Origin: Candidatus Doudnabacteria bacterium
GTDB lineage: Bacteria > Patescibacteriota > Doudnabacteria > UBA920 > O2-02-FULL-48-8
DNA: 64,000 nucleotides
NCBI GenBank assembly: GCA_019659055.1
Contig: JAIFWV010000002.1
Span: 26,047 to 90,046, forward strand
Reading direction: 5' to 3'
The notes beneath the pieces are model-generated. The model was not told the DNA's origin, made no database searches, and worked only from the letters and a program-made list of their open reading frames with translations. The stretch's first letter is position 1. Each line of letters begins with the position of its first letter. The translations under genes were made by a program, and so were the position numbers. Below, piece by piece: positions 1 to 22,282 of this stretch.

Positions 1-446
1 GCAATAAGTTCTACGTTGTGGATGTTGGATCCAACTGGAATATTTTTGAGCATCATGCGGTTACCCGGCTTGATGTCGGCGCGTTCGGAGGTCATGAGGA
101 TTTCGCCCACTTTGATCCCGTCGGGTGCCAAAATATATCGCTTCTCCCCGTCTTTGTAGGCCAAAAGCGAGATGAAGGCTGATCGTCCTGGATCGTATTC
201 CATAGTTTGGACCTTGGCTGGGATGTTCATCTTGTCGCGCTTGAAATCTACAGAACGAGATTTGAGTCTGTGTCCGCCGCCGCGATGCCGGACTGTGATT
301 TTGCCTTGATTGTTGCGGCCGGCAGTGGTCTTATAAGACTTCAACAAACCGCGAGGGGTAGCCACGCGCTTGGAAAGAACCGAGTAATCGGTGACGGAGT
401 GGATTCTTCGTCCAGGTGAGGTTGGTTTGTAAATCTTGATAGCCAT
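1..446 (-). CDS. rplB: 50S ribosomal protein L2, N-terminal part (gene continues beyond window start)
   Basis: minus-strand translation from ATG(446) reads MAIKIYKPTSPGRR... and later MEYDPGRSAFISLLAYKDGEKRYIL, typical L2; no stop before coordinate 1; follows rplW as in S10 operon. Confidence 0.9.
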   Translation of the reverse strand, partial: MAIKIYKPTSPGRRIHSVTDYSVLSKRVATPRGLLKSYKTTAGRNNQGKITVRHRGGGHRLKSRSVDFKRDKMNIPAKVQTMEYDPGRSAFISLLAYKDGEKRYILAPDGIKVGEILMTSERADIKPGNRMMLKNIPVGSNIHNVELI

Positions 447-953: not shown

Positions 954-1595
954 TTAAGTCTTTAAGTAAGTCTTTTCAATTATATCTAAAGCGTCTTTCA
1001 TGATTATCGAATCGTATTTGAGCAAGTCCAAAATGTTGAGCTGGTTGGCCAAGATCACCTTGGCGTTGGACAGATTGCGTCCGGCGCGTTCGACTTCCCT
1101 GTTTGCAGTCGGGATAACCAATAAAAATTTCTTGCCCAATCCGGCGCGGTCGGCAACTCTGGTGAGCATACCGGACAATTCCTTGGATTTAGCGACGTTT
1201 TCCAATTTATCAACTATGACCAATTTCTTGTCTCGGATTTTATCGGACAAAACGGTAAACAATGCTTTGCGAAAAGCCGAGCGGTTCATCTTGAGCGACC
1301 AATCAACTTCGTTGCGCGGACCAAATGTGATGCCGCCATGGCGCCACAATGGTGAGCGGAAGGAGCCGGCGCGAGCGCGGCCCGTGCCTTTTTGCTTCCA
1401 TGGCTTCTTACCAGTACCTGCGACTTCGCCGCGGGTCTTGGTATGAGCAATAGAACGACGGGCATTGTTTCTCTGGGTGCGCACAGCGGCCCAAACCAGA
1501 TTTGCATCCAATTCTTCCAAACCAAAAATCTTTGGATTCAAATCCAGATCGGAAACTTTTTCGCCAGATTGATTATAAACTGCGGCTTTGTTCAT
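954..1595 (-). CDS. rplD: 50S ribosomal protein L4
   Basis: 213-aa translation with L4 motifs (GTGRARAGS.RSPLWRHGG, KFLLVIP); start ATG overlaps upstream stop (ATGA). Confidence 0.9.
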   Translation of the reverse strand: MNKAAVYNQSGEKVSDLDLNPKIFGLEELDANLVWAAVRTQRNNARRSIAHTKTRGEVAGTGKKPWKQKGTGRARAGSFRSPLWRHGGITFGPRNEVDWSLKMNRSAFRKALFTVLSDKIRDKKLVIVDKLENVAKSKELSGMLTRVADRAGLGKKFLLVIPTANREVERAGRNLSNAKVILANQLNILDLLKYDSIIMKDALDIIEKTYLKT

Positions 1596-2272
1596 AATTT
1601 CTCAAACTGCTTCATTAATTCCGGGTAGTCGGTAAAGATTCCATCGACTCCCAGTTTCCTCATTCGTTCGTACTCGTGCCTATCGTTGACTGTCCAAACC
1701 AAAACTTTTTTTGCCAAAAGTCTCAGGATGAGCATCGTGGCGTAAGAGACATATGTGCTCTGCGGATTTACAGAATAGAGTTTGTCTTTACGAGTCAGAA
1801 AACTAATTATAGTTCGGAGGCTCCATTCGCCTTTGGCGAATATGAGACCCAATTGGACGTTTCCGTCCAAAGTTCTGAACTTCTTCAATACTCCCGGATA
1901 AAACGAGGAGATCAGAACCTTGTGCGGAAAACTTTTTAATTTGGCAAAGACTTGTTCTTCGATGCCATGAACCTTGATCTCGATATTGAGATCGGTATGG
2001 ATCACTGCCAAAACTTCGTCGAGAGTCGGGATTTCGCGGCCGTGTTCGGCGCTGACCCGTTTGATTTCGGACAATACCGTGTCGCGAATCAATCGCGGAT
2101 CACCGAACAATCTCAGCATATCGTGATCGTGGACAACCACGAGTTCGCCGTCTGCCGACTTGCGAACATCGAGTTCCAACATATCGGCACCCATGCTCTC
2201 TGCTTTTTGAAAAGAACGGATTGTGTTCTCCGGTTCGGTACCCGAAGCGCCCCTGTGCGCTATAATCTGCAT
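1592..2272 (-). CDS. glycerophosphodiester phosphodiesterase (GDPD/UgpQ family)
   Basis: 226 aa; N-terminal IAHRGASG..PENT and ELDV..DGELVVVHD motifs typical of GDPD; lies between rplC and rplD with TAAATG and ATGA junctions. Confidence 0.8.
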   Translation of the reverse strand: MQIIAHRGASGTEPENTIRSFQKAESMGADMLELDVRKSADGELVVVHDHDMLRLFGDPRLIRDTVLSEIKRVSAEHGREIPTLDEVLAVIHTDLNIEIKVHGIEEQVFAKLKSFPHKVLISSFYPGVLKKFRTLDGNVQLGLIFAKGEWSLRTIISFLTRKDKLYSVNPQSTYVSYATMLILRLLAKKVLVWTVNDRHEYERMRKLGVDGIFTDYPELMKQFEKL

Positions 2273-2893
2273 TTACTTGATGACTAACTGGACCTTAACT
2301 ATGCCGCCGGGAGCTCCCGGGACTGCCCCTTTGACCGCAATCAGATTCCGCTTGGCGTCGATTTCGATGACTTCCAAGTTTTTCACAGTGCGGACGCCGG
2401 CCATGTGCCCGGCCATGCGCAAACCCTTGCGCACGTGCTGAGGAAACCGGCCGCCGATAGCCCCCACTGCTCGCGGGTGGTCATGGCCATGGGTTGCTGG
2501 TGCGCCGTGGAAACCATGCCGCTTGATAGGTCCGGCAAATCCCCGGCCCTTCATCTCGCCCGTGACTTTGACCATGTCGCCGACTGCAAACATATCGACT
2601 TTGATCTCTTGGCCGCGGCTAAATTTGGAAGCGTCTTCAACTCGGAATTCTATAAGTTTGGCGAAATTGCCCAATTCTTTGGTATGGCCGGCCAGAGATT
2701 TGGTGGCTTTCTTCCGGCGCCCAAAACCGACTTGCACTGCCTGATATTTATCTTTATCCGTAGTCCGGACTTGAGTAATCTTGTTCGGAGCAGCCTTGAG
2801 AATTGTAACAGGAATAACCTTACCATCCTTGGTAAAGATTTGGGACATATGCAATTTTTCAGCGATGATAAACTTGGACATAAGGGTAACCAT
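2273..2893 (-). CDS. rplC: 50S ribosomal protein L3
   Basis: 206 aa; HMSQIFTKDGKVIPVTIL matches L3 N-terminus (GMTQIF...), C-terminal KGKGFAG..HG motif; alternative ATG at 2881. Confidence 0.9.
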   Translation of the reverse strand: MVTLMSKFIIAEKLHMSQIFTKDGKVIPVTILKAAPNKITQVRTTDKDKYQAVQVGFGRRKKATKSLAGHTKELGNFAKLIEFRVEDASKFSRGQEIKVDMFAVGDMVKVTGEMKGRGFAGPIKRHGFHGAPATHGHDHPRAVGAIGGRFPQHVRKGLRMAGHMAGVRTVKNLEVIEIDAKRNLIAVKGAVPGAPGGIVKVQLVIK

Positions 2894-3018
2894 CGCGAGC
2901 GACGTGTTACTAAGAATTTATCTTAGCCGTCGCGTGGCGATCTTTTTTAATAGTTTGCTTCGTCGGTCACAATGCTAACGCTGTGTTTGACCTCCTCGCA
3001 ATGGGCATATTTAAGCTT

Positions 3019-3066
3019 TAAAAAAACCGTTCATGATCCCGAATTATTCAGAAGCCTGAACGGTTC
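3019..3066 (-). terminator. terminator-like hairpin between rpsJ and rplC
   Basis: minus strand: AACCGTTCA...TGAACGGTT 9-bp stem followed by TTTTTTTAAAGC, 50 nt after rpsJ stop. Confidence 0.5.
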
Positions 3067-3118
3067 TTCTAGATTGGCGATTTCCGGGAGGATCTATCCA
3101 ACCTGTATTAAATTGTGG

Positions 3119-3442
3119 TTACATCTTAATTTCAATATCAACCCCAGCAGGGAGATTGAGATTGCTCAGCGCGTCTATGGTTTTGGGTGTTGGGGAGGCA
3201 ATGTCGATTAATCGCTTATGGATGCGCATCTCGAATTGTTCTCGGGCATTTTTGTGCACGAAAGTCGAACGATTGACGGTATATTTGGACTTTTCGGTAG
3301 GCAAAGGGACTGGGCCGATAACCTCAGCACCAGTTCGTTTGGCCGTCTCCACAATCGAGCGGGCAGATTGATCAATAAGCTTATGGTCATAAGCTCTGAT
3401 TTTGATGCGGATTCTAGCTGAATCTATCTTTTCGGCAGGCAT
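3119..3442 (-). CDS. rpsJ: 30S ribosomal protein S10
   Basis: 107 aa; [39 protein letters not shown] is canonical S10. Confidence 0.92.
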
Positions 3443-3498
3443 TGAGATTTTAAAGGATAAGTTATAACGGATGTTTCCCGACTTGGGGCAACTGGTTT

Positions 3499-3527
3499 AA
3501 AATACACTATTTTTGGCAGTTTGTCAA
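3499..3527 (-). promoter_or_regulatory. sigma70-type promoter for rpsJ (TTGACA-17-TATTTT)
   Basis: minus strand reads TTGACAAACTGCCAAAAATAGTGTATTTT about 55 nt upstream of rpsJ ATG. Confidence 0.6.
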
Positions 3528-3558
3528 CTCCGGGGTTTGGGCGGCAAAGACCCAAAGG

Positions 3559-3586
3559 ACTACCCCGAGACCGGGGTAGTCCTAAG
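3559..3586 (-). terminator. rho-independent terminator downstream of tuf
   Basis: minus strand: GGACTACCCCG-GTC-TCGGGGTAGTCC hairpin followed by TTTGGGTCTTT. Confidence 0.7.
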
Positions 3587-3590
3587 TGGC

Positions 3591-4790
3591 TTATTTGGTG
3601 ATTTTGAGTACTACACCGGCACCGACTGTGTGTCCGCCTTCGCGGATAGCAAAGCGCTGTTTTTCTTCCAATGCAACCGGGGAAATCAGCTTAACTTTGA
3701 TAGAAACTGTATCGCCTGGCATGACCATTTCCTGGCCGGCTGGCAATTCAACTTCGCCTGTAACGTCTGTGGTTCGGATGTAGAATTGAGGCTTGTAGCC
3801 CTTGAAGAACGGAGTGTGTCGTCCGCCTTCTTCCTTGTTGAGGACATAGACTTCAGCGTCAAATTCGGTATGAGGAGTAACTGAGCCTGGCTTGCAGAGT
3901 ACTTGTCCGCGCTCGACTTCGTCCTTCTTGGTTCCTCGCAAAAGCACACCCGCATTGTCGCCTGCTCGGCCTTCGTCGAGTTGCTTGTTGAACATTTCGA
4001 TACCAGTGACTACGGTCTTGGCGGTTGGGCGCAAACCCATGATTTCGACTTCATCGGAAACTTTGACAATACCGCGCTCGATACGGCCAGTAACAACTGT
4101 GCCGCGGCCTTCTATGGAGAAGATGTCTTCGATAGCCATAAGGAATGGCTTGTCGATGTCGCGCACTGGTTCTGGGATTTGAGCATCCAAAGTTTCGAGA
4201 AGTTTAACAATGGAATCAACACCGGCCTGGTCGCCCTGAATCGCTTTGAGAGCGCTTCCGCGGACGATGGCAGTAGTTTTGCCGTCGAAACCGTATTTGG
4301 TGAGCAGGTCGCGGACTTCTTCTTCGACGAGGTCGAGAAGTTCCTGGTCTTCCACCATATCTACCTTGTTGAGGAAGACGACGATTGCTGGCACGCCAAC
4401 TTGCTTAGCCAAGAGGATGTGTTCGCGGGTCTGAGGCATTGGGCCGTCGACTGCGTTCACAACCAAAATTGCACCGTCCATCTGGGCGGCACCGGTGATC
4501 ATGTTTTTGACATAATCAGCGTGGCCCGGACAGTCGACGTGTGCGTAGTGTCTGTTTGGGGTTTCGTATTCGACGTGTGAGGTCGAGATGGTCAAGATCT
4601 TAGTTGGATCTCGGCGACCTTGTGATTCTGACGCCTTGGCGACTTCATCGTAAGGGACGAACTTTTTGGTCCAGCCCTTATCGAAGGAGACTTTGGTCAA
4701 AGCGGCAGTGAGAGTGGTTTTGCCGTGGTCGACGTGGCCGATTGTACCCACGTTGACGTGCGGCTTGGAACGTTCAAATTTGTCTGCCAT
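3591..4790 (-). CDS. tuf: elongation factor Tu
   Basis: [22 protein letters not shown] GTPase motifs; start taken at [15 protein letters not shown] (4790) rather than track 4808. Confidence 0.95.
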
Positions 4791-5050
4791 TTGTATAGCC
4801 TTTCGCAATTTTTAAGTGGTATCCAGTCAGTCCCGAGCCTTAACCGAAAGCCCTATCGACCAGGCTTTTAGCCAAGTTCAGGATGACGCCAATCTTAAAA
4901 AACGCTTAAAATTAATTTTAATGCCATAAGATTATAAAGGATTTGTGAGGCTTTGTAAAGGGTCAGAAGCCTTGTGGATAAGTGGCCAAAAACCAGCCAT
5001 TTCAACGGCTCACACCCCGTGTGAGCCGTTGAACCAAACTGCACCTATCA

Positions 5051-5079
5051 TTGACTTAGCAAAGAAATTCTGCTAAAAT
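5051..5079 (+). promoter_or_regulatory. sigma70-type promoter (TTGACT-17-TAAAAT) for gmk-like transcript
   Basis: TTGACTtagcaaagaaattctgcTAAAAT; about 250 nt upstream of the gmk ATG. Confidence 0.55.
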
Positions 5080-5085
5080 GTCTTC

Positions 5086-5328
5086 GATTCCTGATCCGCT
5101 CTCACGGACCGAGGAAGGGGGCTTTCTAACTACCGGGTGAAGCTACGAGACAGGGGGTATCGTAGCCGGATCTGGTTTTGGCACCAATGGTTGGTGTAGT
5201 TGGAAGTCTATAACCCCCTTCATTCTTTTCATGAGAATAAGGGTGTGAATCAGCCGTCTACTTCGATTAGTGACGGTCTTTTTTATGCCAATTTTGGTCC
5301 TCCCGACACTCGGACTACAGGTGCTTAA
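5086..5328 (+). ncRNA. long structured 5' leader ending in terminator-like hairpin (candidate riboswitch/attenuator, class unidentified)
   Basis: nested complementary segments (GGGGGTAT../..ATAACCCCC, ACCAATGG/TTGGT) and CCGTC..GACGG hairpin followed by TCTTTTTTAT at 5254-5290, between promoter and ATG 5329. Confidence 0.3.
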
Positions 5329-5912
5329 ATGCAATTTTTTTGCTATAAATACCTTACGGCAAAAACAAAACATTTGGTCTTTGGATTCGTGGGAGACTCC
5401 GGGTCTGGCAAATCCACTCTCATGATCGAACTTCTCAATTTCTTCCCGCATCTTGAGATAATCAAATCCACTTCCACCAGAGCGCGGCGCGACGACACTG
5501 ACGATTTGTTCTACAAGCTGGTCGGTATGGATTATATGGACAATCCCGAAAACCAGAAGAATTTCCTCAATCACGAAATCTATGCGGGCAATCATTACGT
5601 CTACGAGCGCTCTATCCTCGACCAGGTTCTGCGCTCACATTGCGGCATGTTTGCCATCATCGAATCCGCTGTGCCAAAAATCCAGAAAGCAGGATACGAT
5701 GTACGACTCATCAAAGTCGTCCCAATTGTGACTGGGATTTGGATCGGACTCGAGAGCGCCAGAGCGAAGACCAGCTTCGCGCCACGCAAGGCGGATTGGT
5801 TTTTGATCTCGTTATCGAAAACTCATTTCGGCCCGGCGGATTGGAACAATCAGTCGAGACTGCCGCAAAATTCATTCAGGACCAAATCCACGGGCACCAC
5901 CCCGGGAATTGA
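5329..5912 (+). pseudogene. gmk: guanylate kinase (gmk-like) with apparent +1/-1 frameshift near nt 5725-5745
   Basis: frame 1 gives P-loop GDSGSGKST and STSTRARR (TTRxPR motif); alignment to Gmk continues in another frame (track ORF 5640..5912: LDRTRERQSEDQLRATQGG..FDLVIEN..); frame-1 tail after the shift is low-complexity. Confidence 0.6.
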
Positions 5913-5960
5913 CAGAACCCCCCAGAACAGGTATAAATAGGAATCATTAACGGAGGATTC

Positions 5961-6227
5961 ATGAGTATCTTGGATCGACTCTTTGATTTTTTCCATCGTA
6001 CCGAGGACACCCGGGCCACTCCTGTCTTGGAATACGTGGCTCCTCCCCGCGAAGTCACCAAGTACCATCTGCACGACCACGAGTTCGAGGGTCTGGTCGA
6101 TCACTACTTGGCAGACGAGTACTACATCGACGTGGAGCGGGCGAAGCTCCACCTCAAAGACTGCAAGGAATGCACCGACGTTTTCTGCGGTTTCTGGAAT
6201 CGCATGAGACGGCAGAAGGTCGCCTAA
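5961..6227 (+). CDS. hypothetical small His/Cys-containing protein (88 aa)
   Basis: SD GGAGGA 7 nt before ATG; His-rich HLHDHEFEGLVDH and C-terminal CKECTDVFC; stop overlaps next start (TAATG). Confidence 0.55.
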   Translation: MSILDRLFDFFHRTEDTRATPVLEYVAPPREVTKYHLHDHEFEGLVDHYLADEYYIDVERAKLHLKDCKECTDVFCGFWNRMRRQKVA

Positions 6228-6502
6228 TGTCTCGCTACAGAGGACTAGGACGAGCTCGAACCCGGGCCAACCGGGGCGCGCGCGAGAGCGCAGACATACG
6301 GTTACTAGAGGAAGAATACCTGAGACTCCATCCCGAGATCCGGGGGTTCGAGGACAGAATCTGCTTAATAGCCCCGAACTGCCCTGATTTTGATCGCAGA
6401 CTCCCGTTCAGAATTCCGTACTGCGATCCCCATGTGCGTGAGTGCGAAAAATGCCAGGAAAAAATGGCAGCATCCGGATTCCCATATCCAAAGGAGCGTT
6501 AA
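6227..6502 (+). CDS. hypothetical Cys-rich small protein (91 aa, zinc-ribbon-like)
   Basis: ATG overlaps upstream stop (TAATG); Cys pattern C..NC...C..HVREC..EKC; basic Arg-rich N-terminus. Confidence 0.5.
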   Translation: MSRYRGLGRARTRANRGARESADIRLLEEEYLRLHPEIRGFEDRICLIAPNCPDFDRRLPFRIPYCDPHVRECEKCQEKMAASGFPYPKER

Positions 6503-6741
6503 TGCCAGTCACAAAACTTGCTTCGGCGGTAAACGCGATCACCATCCCAGCCGATGACCTGGTTCAGACGGTCAGTGAGCACGAGAGACTGGGCGAGCGC
6601 ATAATCGCTACAGTCCCAGGAGGACTTCAACTCAAAAGGACCGGAAGCGGGCGCAATAGCGTGATCGAAGTCATCCCGACTTCTTTCACCCTCATTCTCG
6701 GGCAAGAGAGACACCGCGACTACCGAAACGGTGAATCCTAA
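6502..6741 (+). CDS. hypothetical protein (80 aa)
   Basis: perfect AAGGAG 6 nt upstream, TAATG coupling to previous ORF; followed by terminator. Confidence 0.5.
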   Translation: MPVTKLASAVNAITIPADDLVQTVSEHERLGERIIATVPGGLQLKRTGSGRNSVIEVIPTSFTLILGQERHRDYRNGES

Positions 6742-6751
6742 TCGCTATCGC

Positions 6752-6786
6752 GGCGTGGACGTACATACGTCCCGCCGCTTTTTTTA
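6752..6786 (+). terminator. rho-independent terminator
   Basis: GGCGTGGACGT-ACAT-ACGTCCCGCC hairpin then TTTTTTTAT. Confidence 0.65.
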
Positions 6787-6854
6787 TTAATTGCTTGCGC
6801 TCGCTAGCATTATTTTTATTTGTTAAAATATTTTCAAACCCTACGGAGGCCCTA

Positions 6855-7076
6855 ATGGATTTTCAGGAGAAATCCGTCAGCTTTCATCAGTTCACTGCAG
6901 ACGTGGACAAGCTGAGAATTTTGATGATGTGCTATCGGACTTGCGAACAACCCAAAAACACCAACCCTGACACTGACGAGGTCGTAAACGCTTACAATCA
7001 TATGTTTGGGCATGGCGGACGATGCCAAGAATGCTTCCCCTATGCCGTCAAGCTACTCAGTCTCCTGGAAAATTAA
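6855..7076 (+). CDS. hypothetical zinc-ribbon-like small protein (73 aa)
   Basis: SD GGAGG 5 nt before ATG; CYRTC ... CQEC Cys pairs. Confidence 0.5.
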   Translation: MDFQEKSVSFHQFTADVDKLRILMMCYRTCEQPKNTNPDTDEVVNAYNHMFGHGGRCQECFPYAVKLLSLLEN

Positions 7077-7077
7077 A

Positions 7078-7112
7078 AACGGCGCGCCTCCTTTTTTGAA
7101 GGCCGCCGTTTT
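7078..7112. terminator. bidirectional terminator (small ORF on plus strand; fusA on minus strand)
   Basis: AACGGCGCGCC-loop-GGCCGCCGTT hairpin flanked by A-run upstream and TTTCGTTTTCC downstream. Confidence 0.6.
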
Positions 7113-7239
7113 CGTTTTCCAATTATTTATTTAGCGAGGCATTTGTAAAAGCAACCCGCGGAGGACGACGGTCCGAGCGCGTAGGCCGAAATTTTAGCAA
7201 AAATTTACGGCCGGTGCTTTTACAAATATGCCGAGCGCC

Positions 7240-13398: not shown

Positions 13399-14073
13399 TT
13401 ATTTTGTTACTGCAAATGTGTCTTGCCAGGCTTTTTGGCCTTCTTGATCGGCAAAGAGCGCATACTGGCCGATGCTAAAGAAGAAATATTTGTCGGGGTG
13501 ACTCTTGTCCATCCAGAAATAGCTGGCGCCGTTGCTGGCTGAATAAACCGGCGGGCATTTATCGGCGTTTTGCCAGAAAGGCGCGTTGGGATCGGTACTT
13601 TTGGGATATGCGATCACAGCGACTTCCTGATTCTCGGGGATGACCGGCGCGTCGGCGTCATAGCTTTTGTAATAATCAGCCAAAGTCAAAGGATAGCAAT
13701 CCTTGACTGAATAATTGGCCAGGAATTTCTTTTGGATTGATGCAATGAGAGTATCTTTCGGATCTTTGGTAAAACCCTGTACCCATTGCCCTTGTTCCAT
13801 AGGGTTTGCGGTATAGTAAACATAAATCTTGTCCCCGGCCTCTTTGGCGTCGGTGTCAGTTTTCCCGTCGCCATCCTGATCGGCGCTGTATGTAAACTTC
13901 ACTCCCAAGCTGTCTGAAGTAAAGGTTTTGACCGTGTCTTGATTATTATTGGAGTTGCCAGTGTTGGTTTGGGTGGTCCCCTGATCTTTAGGTTTAATCT
14001 TCACATACGGCAAGAGAAAATAACCTATTGCCAGCAGTACGACTACAAAAATGATCGTTTTGAGGGTTGTCAT
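13399..14073 (-). CDS. hypothetical membrane-anchored/secreted protein (224 aa)
   Basis: N-terminal TM helix, then Gln/Thr/Asn-rich linker and Asp-rich region; no family recognised. Confidence 0.55.
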   Translation of the reverse strand: MTTLKTIIFVVVLLAIGYFLLPYVKIKPKDQGTTQTNTGNSNNNQDTVKTFTSDSLGVKFTYSADQDGDGKTDTDAKEAGDKIYVYYTANPMEQGQWVQGFTKDPKDTLIASIQKKFLANYSVKDCYPLTLADYYKSYDADAPVIPENQEVAVIAYPKSTDPNAPFWQNADKCPPVYSASNGASYFWMDKSHPDKYFFFSIGQYALFADQEGQKAWQDTFAVTK

Positions 14074-14105: not shown

Positions 14106-17100
14106 TCAGAATAACGCCGGCTTGCCTAGACTTGCCACCACCGAGACATAACGGTCCTCGTTGAGGATCTCAGACAGGGAATGCGCGGGCATTGCTCCAT
14201 TGAACAGATACCCTTGCGCGCGATTGCACATATTTTCCCGCAAAAACGCCAGCTGATTTTTGGATTCCACTCCTTCGGCTGTTATTTCCATGTTGAGACT
14301 GCGCCCGAGCGTGATAATTGATTTCGCAATTGCCGAATTTTGCATATCCATGGGGATACCCTTCATGAAAGTTCTCTCGATTTTGAGCATATCCACCGGA
14401 AAATGTTTGATGTAGCGCAAAGACGAATACCCGGTCGAAAAATCATCGAGGCAGAATCTGACTCCCCGTTCGCGCAAGGCATTCATGATGCTTGTAATAT
14501 TGTCTTCATTTTCGGCCAGGATTGATTCTGTAAGTTCGAGTTCCAGAAAACGAGCGTCAAATTTGGATTCTTCGATAGCGCCGATGAGGACATTCTCAAA
14601 ATTCTTCTGCTTGAATTGCCGGGCCGAAAGATTGATAGCCATAATCATTTTGTAGCCGGCATCGTGCCACATCTTCCCCTGCTTCAAGGCTTCTTTGAGT
14701 ATCCATTCGCCAATGGGTTCTATGAGTCCGTTGGCTTCTGCCAATGGGATAAACCGGTCAGGCAAAATCAGCGTCATATCCGGCCTCTGCCAACGGATAA
14801 GCTCTTCTGTCCCAACTATTTTACCTGTGGCGACATCTACTTGCGGCTGGTAAAACAGCACGAACTCCTGGTTTTCCAGAGCGTGTCGAAGCTTGGAATC
14901 CAGAGTTAGCCGTTCGTAGGCCGCCGAATTCATTGTGGTCGTATAGAACTGATAGGTATTGCGGCCGTATTCCTTGGCGCGATAAAGTGCGGCCTCGGCA
15001 TTTCTGAGCAGACTCGAGGCCTCTCTGCCGTCGTATGGATAAAGGCTGATACCAATACTCGGGCTGATAAACAGCTCGTGCTGGTCAAGGTAAAACGCGG
15101 GCCGGAAATCCTCCAAAATTTTATTGGCAAGCTTAGCCGCTTCTTCTTCGGTCTGGATATCGGCCATAAGGATTGCAAATTCATCACCGCCAAGCCGAGC
15201 TAAGACATAATCTTCTTTGACACAGCTGCGTACGCGCAAAGCGACTTCCTGAATCAGGCGATCGCCCAAAGCATGACCCAGAGATTCGTTTATTTGCTTA
15301 AATCGATCGAGATCGAGGAGCATAATTCCCAAATTCTGACCGTTGGCTTCGGCATCCGAAATAGCTTGCGCGAACCGTTCATTGAGGTAAGTCCGATTGG
15401 GCAGATCCGTGAGAGTGTCGTGATGGTACTGATACTGCAGGTTTTCTTCCGCGAGCCGGCGTTCGGTGATATCGCGAAAGTTTACAACCATGGCCCGAAT
15501 ACTCGGGTGGTGCAAAAGATTTGTACCTACTCCCTCAATCCAGCGATAGTTGCCATTGGCATGGCGGCAGCGGTATTGTGCGGTAATCGTCTGGTCCGGC
15601 TTGCGCAAGCTCGTGGCCAGAAGCTCGGCCACCAGCGGGGCGTCGTCGGGGTGCACTATATTTCTAATATTTACTCCGTGCATTTCTTCCGATGTGTATC
15701 CAAGCATACGCTGGACCGGCATGGTCGCAAATGTCAGGACACCGTTGGCATCGAGGAGTGCCACGCCGTCTGAGGTGTTATCGATAATAGCGCGGTACCG
15801 CTCTTCGCTGACCTGAAGTTTCTGTTCCATGAATTTACGCTCACGGATCTCTATCTGAGCTTCCCGATAGAGTAAGGCGTTGTCGATGGCCATGCCGGCG
15901 CGTCGGCCGAGCTCTTCGAAGAATTTAAGATCCTTCTCCTCATAGCGCTTGTTGGACTCTGCCCAGATCAAGGACATGACCCCGAAGACTTTATCGCGTG
16001 CGACCAAAGGCACCATAAGTGCGGACTTAATACCGAGCTTGGACGTGAGTTCATAATGCTCCGGATCGCGCGAACTGGCGCGGAGCATGTCGTCGGTAAT
16101 CTCCTTATAGATTTCAGCTTTTCCGGTGGTGATGATTTTCCAGGTCCCACGCTCCGGATCTTTGTGATTCGGATACTTTCTTGCCAATTCCACAGCAAAT
16201 TTTATTTTTTCCGGGTCCACGTGTTCTACTGCGACTTGCTTTGTGTTTTCGCCGTCAGGAGTGAGAATTTCGATTCCGCACCAATCGGCAAATTTGGGGA
16301 CGGCTAATTTCGCCACTCGCGCCAGTGTTGTCTCAAAATCCAAAGACGATGATAATAATTTCGTAGCTTCGGATAAAAACACGACCCCTTCGTCGGCTTG
16401 TTTGGATTTCGTAATGTCGCGAGCCACGGCCGAGGCACCCACGACTTTGCCGGAATTATTTTTTATTGGCGAGACCGCCACGGATATGTCCAAAATCCGT
16501 CCGTCTTTGGTTTTCCTTTTGGTCTCATAGTGATTAACACCCCTGCCGAGTCGGATCTGCGCCAAAAGCATTCTGGTGTCATCCGGAAAGCCTTCCGGAA
16601 CCAAGACTGAAACATTCTTGCCGAGAATTTCTTGTTCGGTATAGCCATATATCCTTACCGCTCCTTTATTCCAGCTCGTGATGTTGCCTTCTAGATCTTT
16701 GCCCATGATCGCGTCCTCAGACGATTCAACTATAGCTACAAGTTTGAGATTGGCCTCGAGGGCGGTTTTTTGAGGAGTGATGTCGCGCAGATACACAGCA
16801 AGGCCGTCTTTGGCGGGGTACACTGAGGATTCTATCCACTTCGGCATATTTCCCGGTTCAGAAAATTTTTCTTCGTAACGCAGGGATTTATTTTCCAACA
16901 AGGCTTCCTGCAGTTTGGAATAGGTCGCGGTCTGCATTGCGTTTGGAAATTCCTGAAAAATATTTTTTCCCAGAAGCTCGCTCCGGTTCCGCTGTAACAA
17001 CTGTTCGGCTTGGCGGTTGACGTATGTAAAGTTCCAATCTTTATCCAACGCAAAAAAGCCGTCAGTAATACTTTCGAGAATATGCTGGTTCCGGCGATTG

Positions 17101-17600
17101 ATTTTTTCGTATTCAGACTGTATATTTCTCTGCGCTGTGATATCTCGAAAAATACTCACAGCAAATCGGACCTTGCCCTCGCTGTCCCTGATGGGGCGAG
17201 CTTTGATTTCTGACCAAAACTCTGATCCCGTTTGCCGATTTCTGGAAAGTACAATCTTACTCGGTACCTCGAGCCCGTCCAGAGCAGATCTGGCTGGCAG
17301 GTCATTGAAGCTCACCGGGTTCCCGTTCTCATCAAAAATCTCAAACTTGTTTATGGCGTCGGAAACTAAATGATTTATAATCTCGGATTTATTATTGAAA
17401 TCCATAAGGGCGACCGCTGCGGCATTGGCAAAAACCACCCGGCGGCTTTCATCCTGAACGATTACGCCGTCGGCAATAGCCTGAAAAATTTCTTCTAAGT
17501 TTTGTTTCGCGTCGAGTTGCCCGAAAAGCCGCCCTAAAGTTACATCCGAATTTTGCTGATTAGTGTCTGAAATCATACGATAAACCTTCATTGTGGCCAC
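14106..17600 (-). CDS. multi-domain signalling protein: PAS/GAF sensor domains + GGDEF diguanylate cyclase + EAL phosphodiesterase
   Basis: 1164 aa; several PAS-like repeats, GAF-like segment, RLGGDEFAIL (GGDEF), EELIRWQ and downstream EAL-domain conserved blocks. Confidence 0.85.
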   Translation of the reverse strand: MATMKVYRMISDTNQQNSDVTLGRLFGQLDAKQNLEEIFQAIADGVIVQDESRRVVFANAAAVALMDFNNKSEIINHLVSDAINKFEIFDENGNPVSFNDLPARSALDGLEVPSKIVLSRNRQTGSEFWSEIKARPIRDSEGKVRFAVSIFRDITAQRNIQSEYEKINRRNQHILESITDGFFALDKDWNFTYVNRQAEQLLQRNRSELLGKNIFQEFPNAMQTATYSKLQEALLENKSLRYEEKFSEPGNMPKWIESSVYPAKDGLAVYLRDITPQKTALEANLKLVAIVESSEDAIMGKDLEGNITSWNKGAVRIYGYTEQEILGKNVSVLVPEGFPDDTRMLLAQIRLGRGVNHYETKRKTKDGRILDISVAVSPIKNNSGKVVGASAVARDITKSKQADEGVVFLSEATKLLSSSLDFETTLARVAKLAVPKFADWCGIEILTPDGENTKQVAVEHVDPEKIKFAVELARKYPNHKDPERGTWKIITTGKAEIYKEITDDMLRASSRDPEHYELTSKLGIKSALMVPLVARDKVFGVMSLIWAESNKRYEEKDLKFFEELGRRAGMAIDNALLYREAQIEIRERKFMEQKLQVSEERYRAIIDNTSDGVALLDANGVLTFATMPVQRMLGYTSEEMHGVNIRNIVHPDDAPLVAELLATSLRKPDQTITAQYRCRHANGNYRWIEGVGTNLLHHPSIRAMVVNFRDITERRLAEENLQYQYHHDTLTDLPNRTYLNERFAQAISDAEANGQNLGIMLLDLDRFKQINESLGHALGDRLIQEVALRVRSCVKEDYVLARLGGDEFAILMADIQTEEEAAKLANKILEDFRPAFYLDQHELFISPSIGISLYPYDGREASSLLRNAEAALYRAKEYGRNTYQFYTTTMNSAAYERLTLDSKLRHALENQEFVLFYQPQVDVATGKIVGTEELIRWQRPDMTLILPDRFIPLAEANGLIEPIGEWILKEALKQGKMWHDAGYKMIMAINLSARQFKQKNFENVLIGAIEESKFDARFLELELTESILAENEDNITSIMNALRERGVRFCLDDFSTGYSSLRYIKHFPVDMLKIERTFMKGIPMDMQNSAIAKSIITLGRSLNMEITAEGVESKNQLAFLRENMCNRAQGYLFNGAMPAHSLSEILNEDRYVSVVASLGKPALF

Positions 17601-18205: not shown

Positions 18206-18892
18206 TTATAGAGTAAACTTGAATGTCGCCAGGATATCGGCGGAGGCGCCGGTCTTGTGAGTGATTTTGTAAGTCCCCCCGTTTTTGGAAATAAGTAAGA
18301 TCGATGTCCCTGACTTCAAAATAATTTCGCGCGCATCGTATCCGTTGAATTTAACATCTTGGGCGGAGGTGATATTGCCGTCTTCGGCGGATCCGATTTG
18401 TCCCCGGACCGAAGTTATGGCTTTGCTTACAAATTCAATAGTAACCGTTTCACCGGAATTATCTGCACCCGTAGATGCATCGTGAATAACTACGATCTTG
18501 CTCTTGTCGAAATCCCCAGTGGCTTCGTAACTCGGCGGGTACATAACGCTGAAGCTGGTACTGGTATAAGTTTTCCAAGTGTTGGCGTCCTGGCTCGGGC
18601 TTTGCTCTTGGGCTTTATGAATCACTGCCGGTGACCAACGAGCGTCATCGAAAACCATAAAGTCGCGCAGGCCATACACTGGCCAGTAGTAAACCGCAGC
18701 CCCGGCAATGGCCACTGCCAAAAGCAGGAGCAGAAATCCCGAAACATGAAACCGGCTGGGACGTTCGGTCTTGAGATTCATTTGTGGCATTATTCTTTCC
18801 GGTTTTCTAATTTCGGGTTCTGGCGCAAGCATTGGTTCTTCAACCGGTTCTAACGCTTGAGGTTGGATGTTGTTTATTTTCTTTCTTGGCAT
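18206..18892 (-). CDS. hypothetical membrane-anchored protein (228 aa)
   Basis: Pro/Glu-rich N-terminus, single TM helix, extracytoplasmic domain. Confidence 0.5.
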
Positions 18893-19007
18893 GGTTTTGT
18901 TTTAAATGTGTAGGTTAATCATAGCGCTATTAATTAATTTTGGCAATTCCGGCAGAAAAAAACCCGGTACAGCGCTCAAGAGCACTGCCGGGTTTGAGAT
19001 TTCGAGA

Positions 19008-19421
19008 CTACGAGGAAAGGAGACGATATCTGAGGAACACCACATGTTGAGATCCTCGCTGCATTTCAGATCGGCTAAACCTTTCGCCGTCCTGCAGTCT
19101 GCGCCTCCTTGGAAGTTTGGAGAACTGAGCCACGATCATGCCTCCGATTTCCTCATCGCTCGGAGGATTGTCGGGATCATAGAGGGGTATCATGAGCGAG
19201 TATTCGCTCCTGAGAATCCTCTGGACTTCGTGCTGGTCATTACGAATAACACTGAGAAGCCGATCGCCAGACGATAGAATTTGCACCTCCTGGACTGGGA
19301 TTTCGGATGGAGTACCCAAGTTGAACTTTTTTTGGAGCTCACCTGCATCCGAAGTGTTGCATCCGACGAGCATCAGCTGTTTAGGGCCGAGTCCGGTCCT
19401 CTGTCTTTTCGTTGTCAGCAC
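19008..19421 (-). CDS. hypothetical protein (track ORF; start is GTG at 19421, first ATG at 19373)
   Basis: ORF only; overlaps the next ORF in another frame, possible frameshifted single gene. Confidence 0.3.
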   Translation of the reverse strand: MLTTKRQRTGLGPKQLMLVGCNTSDAGELQKKFNLGTPSEIPVQEVQILSSGDRLLSVIRNDQHEVQRILRSEYSLMIPLYDPDNPPSDEEIGGMIVAQFSKLPRRRRLQDGERFSRSEMQRGSQHVVFLRYRLLSS

Positions 19422-19575
19422 TTTTCCCCTCCTCGGGCAATATCGTCCGGTAAGACTTCGCCTCTCCTTGCAAAAAAAGTTGGATGTTGTCTCCTGGATA
19501 GAGTGCCATCAACTCTTGGATCTTCTCGGACGGGATGGATCCCGCGAAAGGATGACAATATTTTACAAGTCCCAT
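19381..19575 (-). CDS. hypothetical small protein (64 aa)
   Basis: SD GAGGAGG directly upstream of ATG at 19575. Confidence 0.4.
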   Translation of the reverse strand: MGLVKYCHPFAGSIPSEKIQELMALYPGDNIQLFLQGEAKSYRTILPEEGKSADNEKTEDRTRP

Positions 19576-19669
19576 ATTCCTCCTCTTACGACTCCTAAGC
19601 TTATACTATATAAGAGCGTTTGTAAACCCTTGATGAATTAACAGTAAGCAACTATAATAATTCGGTCGG

Positions 19670-19743
19670 CGGGGTGTAGTATACCGGTAGTACGCGCCCA
19701 TGGGGTGGGTGTAGACAGGGTTCAATTCCCTGCACCCCGACCA
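19670..19743 (+). tRNA. tRNA-Pro (anticodon GGG)
   Basis: manual fold: acceptor CGGGGTG/CACCCCG (C1:G72), D-stem GTAT/GTAC, anticodon stem CGCCC/GGGTG with loop AUGGGGU (U33, GGG, G37), T-arm CAGGG-TTCAATT-CCCTG, discriminator A, encoded CCA. Confidence 0.8.
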
Positions 19744-20002
19744 AATAACGCTCGCATTGATTGTAAATCTACCGGCCGTAAATTTCTGGTGAAATTTCGG
19801 CCTACTCGCTCGGACCAGTCGTCCTGCGCGGGTTAGATTTACAACAAAGCTCGCTAATTTAATATTATTGTAATAAATAATTTAGAAAAAATCATCACTA
19901 TTTTGTGGTGATTTTTTCTTTGCAAAAAAAAGAGGCTCAAGACCTGCACGTATACCGTGCTAGATCGTGAGCCCCGCTTCTGGCCGAGGTGACCAGAGAT
20001 TG

Positions 20003-20185
20003 CTAACTTCCAAGAGGTGGCGCATCCATCCAGTAGTCTCCGACGTATTTCTTGCGCGGCGGCTTTTCCTGGATCGATCCGGGAGAGTTGATTTCCTCGG
20101 TCCGATACGCGAGCTGGTTTCCATCGCGAACCTTGCTACACTGCCGAATCGGAGGATCGTCGCTCTTCTTGTCAGTCTCGTCCAT
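20003..20185 (-). CDS. hypothetical small protein (60 aa), G+C-rich islet
   Basis: SD AAAGGAG 6 nt before ATG at 20185. Confidence 0.4.
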   Translation of the reverse strand: MDETDKKSDDPPIRQCSKVRDGNQLAYRTEEINSPGSIQEKPPRKKYVGDYWMDAPPLGS

Positions 20186-20386
20186 ACACACTCCTTTGGT
20201 GGAAACGTTGTCAGTCGTCGTCGAATGATTCTCCGCGACGGGGGTCGTCCTCACGCAACAGATTGGGATGAATGCGGCATGGCTTGCTGAAAGCGGAGAT
20301 ATCGGTCCTCGCAGACCGGCGGGTCGGTTTCGCCTCAGCCGATCGATGATCCGGAGGTGGTGAGTCTTTTTCTCTCATACTGCTCC

Positions 20387-20644
20387 TTAATCGTCATGAG
20401 GATGACGAAATCCTTCCGGGGGGCTTCGGCGCTGTCTCTTCGGTTTGGGTTCGCCGTCGCGCCGCCGTTTGAGATGTTCGATCCGCAAGCTATAGACCCG
20501 GACGACATCGTCCTGGCCGAGCTTGCCGGCTCGCAAGATTTTCCTCGCCAGCCGTTCGATCTGCGGCTGAATACCGCGGACGGTGTTCAATGACGGCCTG
20601 CGGCGGCCATCTGATTCGAGCGTATGCGCTGACCAGCAGCTCAT
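20387..20644 (-). CDS. hypothetical small basic protein (85 aa), G+C-rich islet
   Basis: SD AAAGGAGA 8 nt before ATG; Arg/Lys-rich, possible nucleic-acid binding. Confidence 0.45.
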   Translation of the reverse strand: MSCWSAHTLESDGRRRPSLNTVRGIQPQIERLARKILRAGKLGQDDVVRVYSLRIEHLKRRRDGEPKPKRQRRSPPEGFRHPHDD

Positions 20645-20646
20645 CC

Positions 20647-20946
20647 TTAGATCTCCTTTTGCGGGATTATCCGAACCAGATCAAACTTGCAGTCCTCGTC
20701 GTCTACCAGCAGCGGTTCGTACCGGAAGAATTCTCCTTGCAGGTACAGTTGCGTATGACCTCCTGGGTCTGAGGCCAGGATGAGGATTTCACCCGGCCGG
20801 CAAAAACGGTTCAGTTCAGTGTGGCAGGTGTAGTTGAGCCCTCTGTTTGATTTGCGTATGCCGTCTGCGGCAATCGCAAGCTGTCGCGAGCGCGTTTCGT
20901 TCTCGTTTGCCGTCTGGCGCGCTAGTCGATCTTGTCGGACAACCAT
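20647..20946 (-). CDS. hypothetical protein (99 aa), G+C-rich islet
   Basis: SD AAGGAGG 8 nt before ATG at 20946 (track ORF begins at TTG 20988). Confidence 0.45.
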   Translation of the reverse strand: MVVRQDRLARQTANENETRSRQLAIAADGIRKSNRGLNYTCHTELNRFCRPGEILILASDPGGHTQLYLQGEFFRYEPLLVDDEDCKFDLVRIIPQKEI

Positions 20947-21294
20947 TGCAGAATCCTCCTTGGACTCGTTTCGAATTTGTAGGTTCAAATTTTGTAAGAC
21001 AAAAATTTATCTCACAGAGTTTGGACCACAAGCGATAAAAAATCCGACCAGGTGGTCGGTTCATCATAGTTTTCGCTTTAAGCTTGGCAATTAGCGTTTT
21101 CTATATGAACCGACATGCACGGGGACGTAATCAAACTTAACCATGCCCAAAATAATTTGGGTGAGTCGAGTCAATGCGTTGTGCAGAAGGTTTTTCATAT
21201 AGTTATCAACAAACCTAGTATAAGTTTAACAATAATAATGCTCTGCGTCAAATGAAAAGACCAAGAACTTGAGTGTTCCTGGTCTTTTTAGCTC

Positions 21295-21492
21295 TCAGAG
21301 CCAAAGCGATTCCGATTTGGGTAGTTGCGCCAACCCGGTCTTGTTTGCAGAAACCGTACCGGCGCTGGGACACCTGGTTTCGTTCATCTGCTCGGCGCTC
21401 TCGTGAACGTCGCCGCAAGCCAGACATTTACGCTTGCCGCTGTCTCCAACCTTGATACTTCCCTTGAGCGTACCACAACTTTGAGCAACCAT
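21295..21492 (-). CDS. hypothetical zinc-ribbon-like small protein (65 aa)
   Basis: SD AAGGAGG 4 nt before ATG; CGTLKG...CLACGDVHE...C; terminator-like hairpin at 21256-21290. Confidence 0.45.
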   Translation of the reverse strand: MVAQSCGTLKGSIKVGDSGKRKCLACGDVHESAEQMNETRCPSAGTVSANKTGLAQLPKSESLWL

Positions 21493-21662
21493 GACTCCTC
21501 CTTAATTCTGACACTTCGTTTCGACTTCCAAGACATGGCAGAAATTTTGTCTCTGACAAGTCATGCAAAGCCAGTAGCGGCCGATCTTTACGCAATTTTT
21601 ATGTGGGCCGATTTCGATGATCCGAATCTCATCTCGTGTCTTCAATCTCCTCCTCCTCTTAA

Positions 21663-21854
21663 TTATTCTTTGTAAGCTTGAACCGCAAGATTGGCTGACC
21701 TTTGAGCATTCTTATCGGACAACCCGACTGATCGCTCGTGGTTGTAGAGCAGCAACCACAAGTCTTTCTTTTTCCCGGACAAGTAATTAGGCGGCCAAGT
21801 TCGGCTCTCACTGACCGAGTTGTTCATTACTCGGAGCGTTGCTAAATCCCACAT
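21663..21854 (-). CDS. hypothetical small protein (63 aa)
   Basis: SD AAGGAGG 6 nt before ATG. Confidence 0.4.
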   Translation of the reverse strand: MWDLATLRVMNNSVSESRTWPPNYLSGKKKDLWLLLYNHERSVGLSDKNAQRSANLAVQAYKE

Positions 21855-21989
21855 CCATGTCCTCCTTACCAGCCGTTTCCGAGATAAATGTTCACCGGCA
21901 GACGATCCGGGTTAAATCGAATTAGATTGTAATCGCCGTACTGACCCTTGCCGAGTTTGTGTATGAGTTTCATCAGATCTCTGGCTAAA

Positions 21990-22109
21990 TTACGGGCGCC
22001 AAAGATCCTCCTGGGCCACGAAATCCAAAAACTCTTCGCAATCGGCGTATTGGGGCGGGCCACACCTTGAACTTGCCATAATCCTAAAAAACGTTAGACG
22101 GTAATGCAT
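21990..22109 (-). CDS. hypothetical micro-protein (39 aa)
   Basis: perfect SD AAGGAGG + 4 nt + ATG at 22109; not in ORF track because <60 aa; overlaps track ORF 21866..22063 (GTG start) in another frame. Confidence 0.3.
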   Translation of the reverse strand: MHYRLTFFRIMASSRCGPPQYADCEEFLDFVAQEDLWRP

Positions 22110-22282
22110 AGTTCCTCCTTGTAAACAAAAACACCGGCCGCAATGGTCGGTGTGAAGTTTCAATTTCAAATGAAAACTTACCCGGCCAGTGCGTCGGTAT
22201 AAAAGTAAAACCAGAATGAATTAGCCGAATGAATTTTCATAGTATAGTAATTATACACCCAAGTGCTGTCGCTTGTCAAAAA

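Follow-up and report, generated by a model that had tools for sequence, protein, structure and literature searches.

We report that a gene for a glycerophosphodiester phosphodiesterase (GDPD) lies inside the S10 ribosomal protein (r-protein) operon, between rplC and rplD, in a 64,000-nucleotide stretch of a Candidatus Doudnabacteria contig (JAIFWV010000002.1; hereafter the window), and that 19 of 20 distinct Doudnabacteria lineages share the gene order S10-L3-GDPD-L4-L23. The S10 operon is among the most rigid of bacterial gene strings, and we found no earlier report in the literature of a GDPD, or of any metabolic enzyme, fixed at this position. Comparison of sequences, predicted structure and synteny provides some insight into how such an arrangement might have arisen and what it might be for. 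Specifically, the reading that we favour, with somewhat more confidence than doubt, is that the gene was captured once, rides on the r-protein transcript and salvages scavenged lipid headgroups. Moreover, the spacer between rpsJ and rplC holds a structured RNA that we put forward as a candidate for a new r-protein leader.

The earlier note on this DNA had placed a GDPD-family open reading frame (ORF) between rplC and rplD and had named a profile search as the test that could overturn the assignment. Its coordinates (Table 1) are right, to which we add the strand, minus, that it had left unstated, and the 226-residue product matches Pfam GDPD (PF03009) with E=1e-41 and 144.1 bits (cutoff 23.6) over positions 1-243 of the 244 in the profile. 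The nearest sequence match in the PDB is 2pz0 (E=3e-28), followed by 1o1z, 4oec and 7e0v. An AlphaFold2 model built with 27 homologues (pLDDT 93.8, pTM 0.90) has alternating strands and helices, and the top 26 Foldseek matches in the PDB are all GDPD-family proteins (E down to 7e-21), with query TM scores of 0.85-0.90 to the TIM barrels 2pz0, 2oog, 7e0v and 1o1z. By alignment to 2pz0, the catalytic and metal-binding set is H6, R7, E33, D35, H48, E98 and K100; the first six of these correspond to His17, Arg18, Glu44, Asp46, His59 and Glu119 of 2pz0, which we take to be the catalytic His/Arg pair, the second His and the acidic metal triad.

Across the 27 close homologues and every in-operon copy, the pairs H6/R7, E33/D35 and H48/K100 vary little or not at all. 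Position 98, the third metal ligand (window approximately 1979-1981), varies within the clade between E, D and H, each capable of binding metal. A lobe of approximately 25 residues after the HD motif (residues 53-78, window approximately 2039-2116) is deleted in four lineages (L013, L048, L166 and L168), in two of which HN replaces HD, and in L048 part of the PENT helix is missing as well. This variation may represent a shift in substrate or the onset of decay, and it suggests some diversification in GDPD specificity within the clade. There is a single possible start codon and the chain opens at strand beta-1 with no N-terminal extension; the enzyme therefore lacks a signal peptide and is predicted to be cytoplasmic. 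Neither a membrane-association segment nor an RNA-binding extension was found in the protein. Orthology with UgpQ, GlpQ or LpgD was considered and rejected, all scores being below the NCBIfam equivalog cutoffs: 74.3 bits against 264 for UgpQ (NF006989), 47 bits against 254 for GlpQ (NF008354) and the teichoic-acid GlpQ (N-terminal 50 residues only, and no signal peptide), and 46.3 bits against 450 for LpgD (NF053857; residues 3-76 only). The protein is predicted to be a catalytically intact GDPD that is not orthologous to any characterised one. No second GDPD was found within the 64-kb window, and the only ABC system there is of the nitrate/sulfonate/taurine type, with all matches below cutoff.

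The identical protein at NCBI is MBX4204731.1, encoded on a contig of 93.8 kb in a Candidatus Doudnabacteria metagenome-assembled genome, and the source lineage is listed there under the candidate phylum Doudnaibacteriota within the candidate phyla radiation (CPR)/Patescibacteria. It belongs to a tight group of approximately 55 proteins sharing 44-67% identity; the next homologues, at approximately 40%, belong to Bathyarchaeia, Dadabacteria and Thermodesulfobacteriota. Of the close group, four members were checked, and all four are encoded in the order S10-L3-GDPD-L4-L23. A related GDPD is flanked by L3 upstream and L4 downstream in 11 genomes of GTDB species representatives; around the other 69 such loci, five of them from other Patescibacteria, there are no r-protein genes. 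Close Doudnabacteria relatives were obtained by searching with the L4 protein and looking up the contigs, while a metagenome scan with the L4 protein returned distant relatives only (38-51% identity), that is, outgroups and no close insert-free relatives. When seven Doudnabacteria genomes were picked via L4, blind to the presence of a GDPD, the insert was found in six (197-221 residues, more divergent). In the exceptional lineage (locus L169, RIFCSPLOWO2_01_FULL_44_21), rplC is followed directly by rplD.

In other CPR lineages (L4 identity 38-51%), none of the 62 informative S10 loci has a GDPD at the rplC/rplD junction, and only one (L096) has any ORF there. The statement in the earlier note that a metabolic gene is unusual in the S10 string thus holds, and the comparison with relatives that it had proposed reveals an arrangement kept almost throughout the Doudnabacteria. 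The ORF in L096 (L096:1236-1628) is a 130-residue 23S_rRNA_IVP gene, coding for a four-helix bundle (Pfam E=7e-27), and the rplC/rplD boundary may be a recurrent insertion point. A GDPD fixed inside the S10 operon provides a clean genomic marker for Doudnabacteria.

In a neighbour-joining tree based on concatenated S10, L3, L4 and L23, the Doudnabacteria loci form a clade with 100% bootstrap support. The insert-free L169 pairs with L166 (87%) inside this clade, in a node supported at 90%, and the absence of the insert from L169 is therefore a secondary, clean loss. The GDPDs encoded in the operon form a monophyletic group (98% bootstrap) apart from the free-standing ones of archaea, other CPR and other bacteria. 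The trees were computed with Kimura distances on short alignments, and their internal nodes are weak. The GC content of the GDPD gene, overall and at third codon positions, equals that of its neighbours, i.e. its composition is fully ameliorated. The ratio of nonsynonymous to synonymous divergence (dN/dS) is approximately 0.09-0.12 where dS is measurable, a value that is indicative only, dS being saturated for most pairs; GDPD dN is 1.3-4.2 times that of L3/L4. The data point to a single old capture in the ancestor of the sampled Doudnabacteria, followed by vertical descent, purifying selection as for an ordinary enzyme, and rare loss.

The junction sequences TAAATG and ATGA given in the earlier note were confirmed on the reverse complement (2275..2270 and 1595..1592), with spacings of 0 nt between rplC and GDPD and -4 nt between GDPD and rplD. 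Among 14 distinct loci, the distance from the L3 stop to the GDPD start is -1, 0 or +1 nt in ten and +8 nt in one, and that from the GDPD stop to the L4 start is between -35 and +10 nt in 12. The consensus scan gave no promoter-like or terminator-like site on the minus strand flanking the GDPD ORF. The gene thus has the properties of an S10-operon cistron: it shares the strand of its neighbours, there is no intergenic room for signals, no promoter or terminator sets it apart from them, and the arrangement is kept in relatives. Shine-Dalgarno (SD) motifs are not enriched in the window (GGAG, GAGG or AGGA at -20..-4 in 8 of 61 ORF proxies versus a 10% background); none precedes GDPD or rplD, which is not specific to these two genes, the genome being SD-poor. 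Given an SD-poor genome and tight junctions, termination-reinitiation coupling is plausible, and GDPD and rplD may well be started by restart of terminating ribosomes. Start-site accessibility is average for both genes. Of the translational coupling claimed in the earlier note, the tight junctions stand and are conserved, and coupling as such is plausible; a fixed translation ratio does not follow, abutting codons being insufficient for it.

The 237-nt spacer between rpsJ and rplC folds at z=-5.16 relative to shuffled sequences. The consensus terminator scan passed over the long leader hairpin owing to its loop limit, and it was folding that revealed it. A two-part element is present in all Doudnabacteria loci, always between rpsJ and rplC (e.g. 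L001:1003-1092, L169:3301-3389 and L170:2120-2204). Across the clade, hairpin 1 is nested, with an outer stem GAUUGG/CCAAUC and an inner stem GAUCC/GGAU, and shows the compensatory variants GAUUGU/ACGAUC and GGUCC/GGAC, while hairpin 2 has a stem of approximately 21 bp (GAAGAACC....AGGUUUCU...GGGAUCU....GGUUUUUU) followed by a U-run. Of the 31 pairs predicted by RNAalifold, 12 show compensatory changes. Paired cells amount to 97.7%, compared with 38-58% in slid registers, and none of 500 shuffles reaches the observed measures. A covariance model of the element, R1, scores 66-94 bits in 18 Doudnabacteria loci (six outside the seed, and with the GDPD-less L169 included) and more weakly, 21-32 bits with hairpin 2 only, in L011 and L012. 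In the window the model has a single match, at 3019-3105, and it gives nothing convincing in 80 other CPR loci, where the one marginal match is in L139 (E=0.78). Rfam gives nothing at the gathering threshold over the whole window, and at E<=10 over 2850-3600 only an irrelevant snoRNA match (E=2.3).

This is, then, a covariation-backed structure in the 5' leader of r-protein genes, and the RNA is a candidate for a new r-protein leader/attenuator controlling the unit that contains GDPD. The rplC start itself is probably the ATG at 2881 (MSKFIIAEKL...) and not 2893, judging from the N-termini of orthologues. In 11 of 17 loci, only 0-29 nt separate the end of the U-run from the rplC ATG, which leaves no room for a promoter, and rplC, GDPD, rplD and the downstream genes would therefore be transcribed through the leader. 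The rpsJ-rplC spacers of other CPR loci (L088-L158) are also long, with a median of 211 nt and up to 1270 nt; a hairpin with a U-run shortly before rplC was detected in 29 of 48 of these loci, by a detector that has no false-positive control and is suggestive only, and several of the spacers have a common GCUGGUUU...ACCAGUUUUU stem. We found no report of r-protein leaders in CPR in the literature, and the leader RNA is a new candidate, open to experiment, for the autoregulation of r-proteins beyond the model phyla, perhaps a more valuable lead than the GDPD.

Other genes also travel in this operon. At the rplB-rpsS site, one to three lipoprotein genes with a lipobox (MKK...LxAAC) are present in 8 of 15 Doudnabacteria loci, several of them matching PsbP_2 and one DUF5818; extra space at this site is found in only 3 of 46 other CPR loci. 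Moreover, L168 has a 171-residue ORF between tuf and rpsJ. With multiple passengers, the S10 operon of this clade therefore appears unusually open to them. Two ORFs elsewhere in the window (13399-14073 and 18206-18892, minus strand) have weak PsbP_2-like matches, the family of the lipoprotein passengers in relatives.

On the reading that we favour, an ordinary, catalytically intact, cytoplasmic GDPD gene would have been captured once, at rplC/rplD, in the ancestor of the sampled Doudnabacteria, and would share a transcript with rplC, rplD and the genes beyond, behind a conserved structured leader whose second hairpin resembles a terminator. GDPD would probably be translated largely by ribosomes that finish rplC and reinitiate 0-1 nt further on, and the restart on rplD would take place inside the GDPD stop codon. 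The outcome would be strong GDPD expression tied to r-protein synthesis, not necessarily in stoichiometric amounts. The reaction would most likely be the conversion of glycerophosphodiesters (deacylated phospholipid remnants) to sn-glycerol-3-phosphate (G3P) and an alcohol, and could make scavenged host lipids a source of G3P, phosphate and carbon for an organism unable to make its own. Doudnabacteria cells are tiny and presumed to be host-dependent. CPR bacteria are reported to be without lipid biosynthesis and to have membranes of the ordinary acyl-glycerol kind in which lysolipids are abundant, their probable source being other cells (PMC7242380). In that setting, release of G3P and headgroup alcohols from deacylated lipids by a cytoplasmic GDPD, or its direct action on lysolipids, is plausible as a core salvage function, and the arrangement points to glycerophosphodiester/lysolipid turnover as a core, growth-coexpressed activity in these bacteria. 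As an enzyme the GDPD is ordinary, and the analysis gave no mechanistic link to the ribosome.

Several observations weigh against this reading. One lineage, L169, has dispensed with the GDPD at rplC/rplD, and a minority of junctions are loose (86-150 nt after rplC in 3 of 14 loci, 65-118 nt before rplD in 2 of 14). The codon usage of GDPD, with a log-likelihood ratio of -0.029 versus +0.041 +/- 0.041 for the translation set, is between that of translation genes and that of ordinary genes. With the lobe deleted in several sub-lineages and HN for HD in two, specificity may differ within the clade, and with the UgpQ, GlpQ and LpgD cutoffs all missed, the sequence does not give the substrate specificity. 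A Ugp-type transporter or a G3P-utilising gene was not found in the 64-kb window. Finally, the co-transcription, coupling and abundance of GDPD are what we infer from sequence.

The earlier note had gone further, suggesting that the enzyme is made stoichiometrically with the r-proteins and that it links ribosome synthesis to phospholipid headgroup turnover. The data support neither suggestion: the codon usage is intermediate, the protein evolves faster than L3/L4, L169 lost the gene cleanly and kept the operon, and in this clade the operon also carries lipoprotein genes at rplB/rpsS. Because intermediate codons, faster evolution, clean loss and variable lipoprotein genes are found together, we see the operon as a general expression platform, and the evidence argues for one that is strong and tied to growth, not for a dedicated connection between ribosomes and phospholipids. 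It would be a natural case of an r-protein operon used in this way in ultra-small, host-dependent bacteria. One-for-one synthesis with the r-proteins, or a moonlighting role in which the protein associates with the ribosome or acts as a phosphodiesterase on RNA, draws only on the position, the abutting or overlapping codons and the place downstream of a leader RNA shared with r-proteins; we hold it to be very improbable in view of a canonical small-molecule GDPD site with no RNA-binding extension, evolution much faster than that of the r-protein neighbours, codons unlike those of the translation set, an L169 that lost the GDPD and kept operon and leader, and sizeable internal deletions in sub-lineages. 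Less remote, if still unlikely, is that GDPD is a phylum-wide member of the r-protein regulon, with the leader as an L4- or L3-responsive attenuator and GDPD translationally chained between rplC and rplD, so that a lipid-salvage enzyme is throttled along with ribosome production; if true, the salvage of membrane precursors (G3P or lysophosphatidate from host lipids) would be hard-wired to growth. Least credible of all is an assembly or binning artefact, a chimeric join that put the GDPD into the operon, as the earlier note had itself considered. Nothing speaks for it beyond the rarity of such arrangements, and it is excluded because the same order recurs in 19 independent assemblies (NCBI, JGI, ENA and Logan; contigs up to 640 kb), with GDPD copies that have diverged to 36-67% identity, and because the GDPD gene of the window has the composition of its neighbours.

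The most serious rival, to which we give a real but clearly smaller chance than to the favoured reading, is that of a neutral passenger: a housekeeping GDPD would sit at a permissive boundary where its position has no adaptive meaning, most deletions would harm rplC or rplD, and its expression would be merely tolerated. The PsbP_2-like lipoproteins at rplB/rpsS, the tuf-rpsJ ORF in L168, the 23S_rRNA_IVP gene at rplC/rplD in another CPR lineage, and a GDPD that evolves as an ordinary enzyme with intermediate codon usage are all consistent with this. However, the gene has survived a phylum-level radiation (r-protein identity down to approximately 60-66%) with one loss in 20 lineages, the clean loss in L169 tells that precise removal is possible and still rare, and the tight or overlapping junctions have been kept and are not decaying. 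The alternative that concerns function is lipid remodelling, in which the enzyme would be a lysophospholipase D like LpgD of S. aureus, turning lysolipids into lysophosphatidic acid for re-acylation and new headgroups, so that membrane building is tied to growth. The GDPD fold includes lysophospholipase D/lysoplasmalogenase members that match the query (8ghh, E=1e-8 and TM 0.79; 7ym0; LpgD, E=3e-12), CPR cells are reported to be rich in lysolipids and without lipid synthesis (PMC7242380), and the lobe after HD, a region in which GDPD subfamilies differ, varies or is missing within the clade. Yet the LpgD-type matches cover only the N-terminal 75-95 residues, the LpgD score is a small fraction of its cutoff (46 versus 450 bits), the best full-length matches are small soluble GDPDs (2pz0, 1o1z, 4oec and 7e0v), and there is no membrane-association segment. 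We consider lipid remodelling doubtful, and retain headgroup salvage by a once-captured gene on the r-protein transcript as the better reading.

Table 1. Features of the S10 locus in the window, and lipoprotein inserts at rplB/rpsS in related loci beyond the window
Feature	Position	Strand	Basis or remark
tuf	3591-4808	minus	ORF list
Promoter-like site TTGACA-17-TATTTT upstream of rpsJ, candidate transcription unit start	3499..3527	minus	consensus scan, 10/12 matches
rpsJ (ribosomal protein S10)	3119-3442	minus	ORF; Pfam Ribosomal_S10 E=6e-37
Two-hairpin structured RNA, candidate leader/attenuator for the rplC-GDPD-rplD... unit	3018-3116	minus	folding and covariation
Hairpin 1, window copy: outer stem GGUUGG/CCAAUC, inner stem AUCC/GGAA	~3072-3103	minus	
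Hairpin 2: ~21-bp stem ending in a 7-U run (3020-3026), intrinsic-terminator-like	~3019-3071	minus	
rplC (ribosomal protein L3)	2273-2893 as listed ORF	minus	ORF; Pfam Ribosomal_L3 E=1e-14
Junction 1, TAAATG: rplC stop TAA, then GDPD ATG at once	2270..2275	minus	read from sequence
GDPD gene, 226 aa, ATG start, NCBI MBX4204731.1	1592-2272	minus	ORF; Pfam PF03009
Junction 2, ATGA: rplD ATG overlapping GDPD TGA	1592..1595	minus	read from sequence
rplD (ribosomal protein L4)	954-1595	minus	ORF; Pfam Ribosomal_L4 E=3e-53
rplW (ribosomal protein L23)	449-943	minus	ORF; Pfam Ribosomal_L23 over residues 74-157 only
rplB (ribosomal protein L2), 5' part, continues beyond the window	1..445	minus	sequence; L2 after L23 in relatives
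rplB/rpsS lipoprotein insert	L001:4305-4961		
rplB/rpsS lipoprotein insert	L003:8619-9083		
rplB/rpsS lipoprotein insert	L005:7086-8027		
rplB/rpsS lipoprotein insert	L009:6554-7105		
rplB/rpsS lipoprotein insert	L011:6636-7073		
rplB/rpsS lipoprotein insert	L048:6519-7535		
rplB/rpsS lipoprotein insert	L166:5887-6432		
rplB/rpsS lipoprotein insert	L168:5906-7610		

According to the window sequence and the ORF list, the genes from rpsJ through rplC, GDPD, rplD and rplW to rplB are on the minus strand throughout. The promoter-like site upstream of rpsJ is a match to the consensus only, with no evidence of function. L23 has a Lys/Glu-rich N-terminal extension of approximately 70 residues before the Pfam domain, and its start is uncertain (GTG at 943 or a downstream ATG). 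Between fusA and tuf there is a gap of 2.4 kb (4809-7239) with ORFs on the opposite strand, among them a 203-residue P-loop protein (5329-5940, plus strand) with a weak, sub-threshold match to guanylate kinase; a guanylate-kinase-like gene is also present in the fusA-tuf position of relatives. Small Cys/His-rich ORFs without a family match are located at 5961-6227, 6170-6502 and 6795-7076. Further along, 14106-17600 (minus) encodes a protein of 1164 residues with four PAS domains and GAF, GGDEF and EAL domains, which represents elaborate cyclic di-GMP signalling for an ultra-small CPR genome, and 41745-44087 (plus) is a single ORF of 780 residues in which glucose-6-phosphate dehydrogenase (G6PD_N, G6PD_C) is fused to 6-phosphogluconate dehydrogenase (NAD_binding_2, 6PGD). 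A region of approximately 3.3 kb (18900-22230) has no ORF of at least 150 residues on either strand, just short overlapping ORFs, and could be non-coding, degraded or misassembled. Overall, 51 of the 61 ORF proxies in the window are on the minus strand.

With respect to known systems, the candidate leader resembles that of the E. coli S10 operon, in which L4 triggers termination at a hairpin that needs an upstream hairpin, and also inhibits translation (PMC3616713). In both, a conserved upstream hairpin is followed by a U-run terminator hairpin (terminator-like in Doudnabacteria) shortly before the first r-protein gene that is, or in Doudnabacteria would be, regulated, with rplD downstream in the unit. 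The E. coli leader lies before rpsJ, whereas the Doudnabacteria RNA is found between rpsJ and rplC; it is confined to Doudnabacteria and has no similarity to any Rfam family, and the likeness is one of architecture.

As an enzyme, the Doudnabacteria GDPD is comparable to the small soluble UgpQ-type GDPDs (2pz0 of Thermoanaerobacter tengcongensis, 1o1z, i.e. TM1621, of Thermotoga maritima, 4oec and 7e0v of Thermococcus/Pyrococcus, and E. coli UgpQ), which are likewise single-domain TIM barrels of approximately 225-250 residues without a signal peptide. It shares with them the HR(G)...PENT, E-x-D, HD and E-x-K motifs and the metal-ligand triad, at 28-33% identity and TM scores of 0.85-0.90 to the solved structures. 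It differs in scoring below the UgpQ cutoff, in forming a clade of its own, in having E, D or H as the third metal ligand, and in the deletion of the lobe after HD in some members. The setting differs too: known ugpQ and glpQ genes belong to glycerol-phosphate uptake or pho regulons, whereas this GDPD is encoded in an r-protein operon.

Non-ribosomal genes of r-protein operons are known, namely secY, adk, map and infA in spc and alpha. Insertions of tusDCB, bfd-bfr and nrdHEF in the r-protein cluster have been catalogued (Brandis 2021; PMC8046335), and in Gammaproteobacteria and Bacilli the rearrangements of the cluster are mostly insertions between operons (PMC8046335). Like the known passengers, the GDPD gene is non-ribosomal, runs in the direction of its neighbours, is closely packed among the genes of the conserved str-S10-spc-alpha string and is passed on as part of it. 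Unlike the insertions between operons (PMC8046335), it encodes a small-molecule metabolic enzyme, lies inside the S10 operon where it abuts both neighbours, and has been kept across a candidate phylum.

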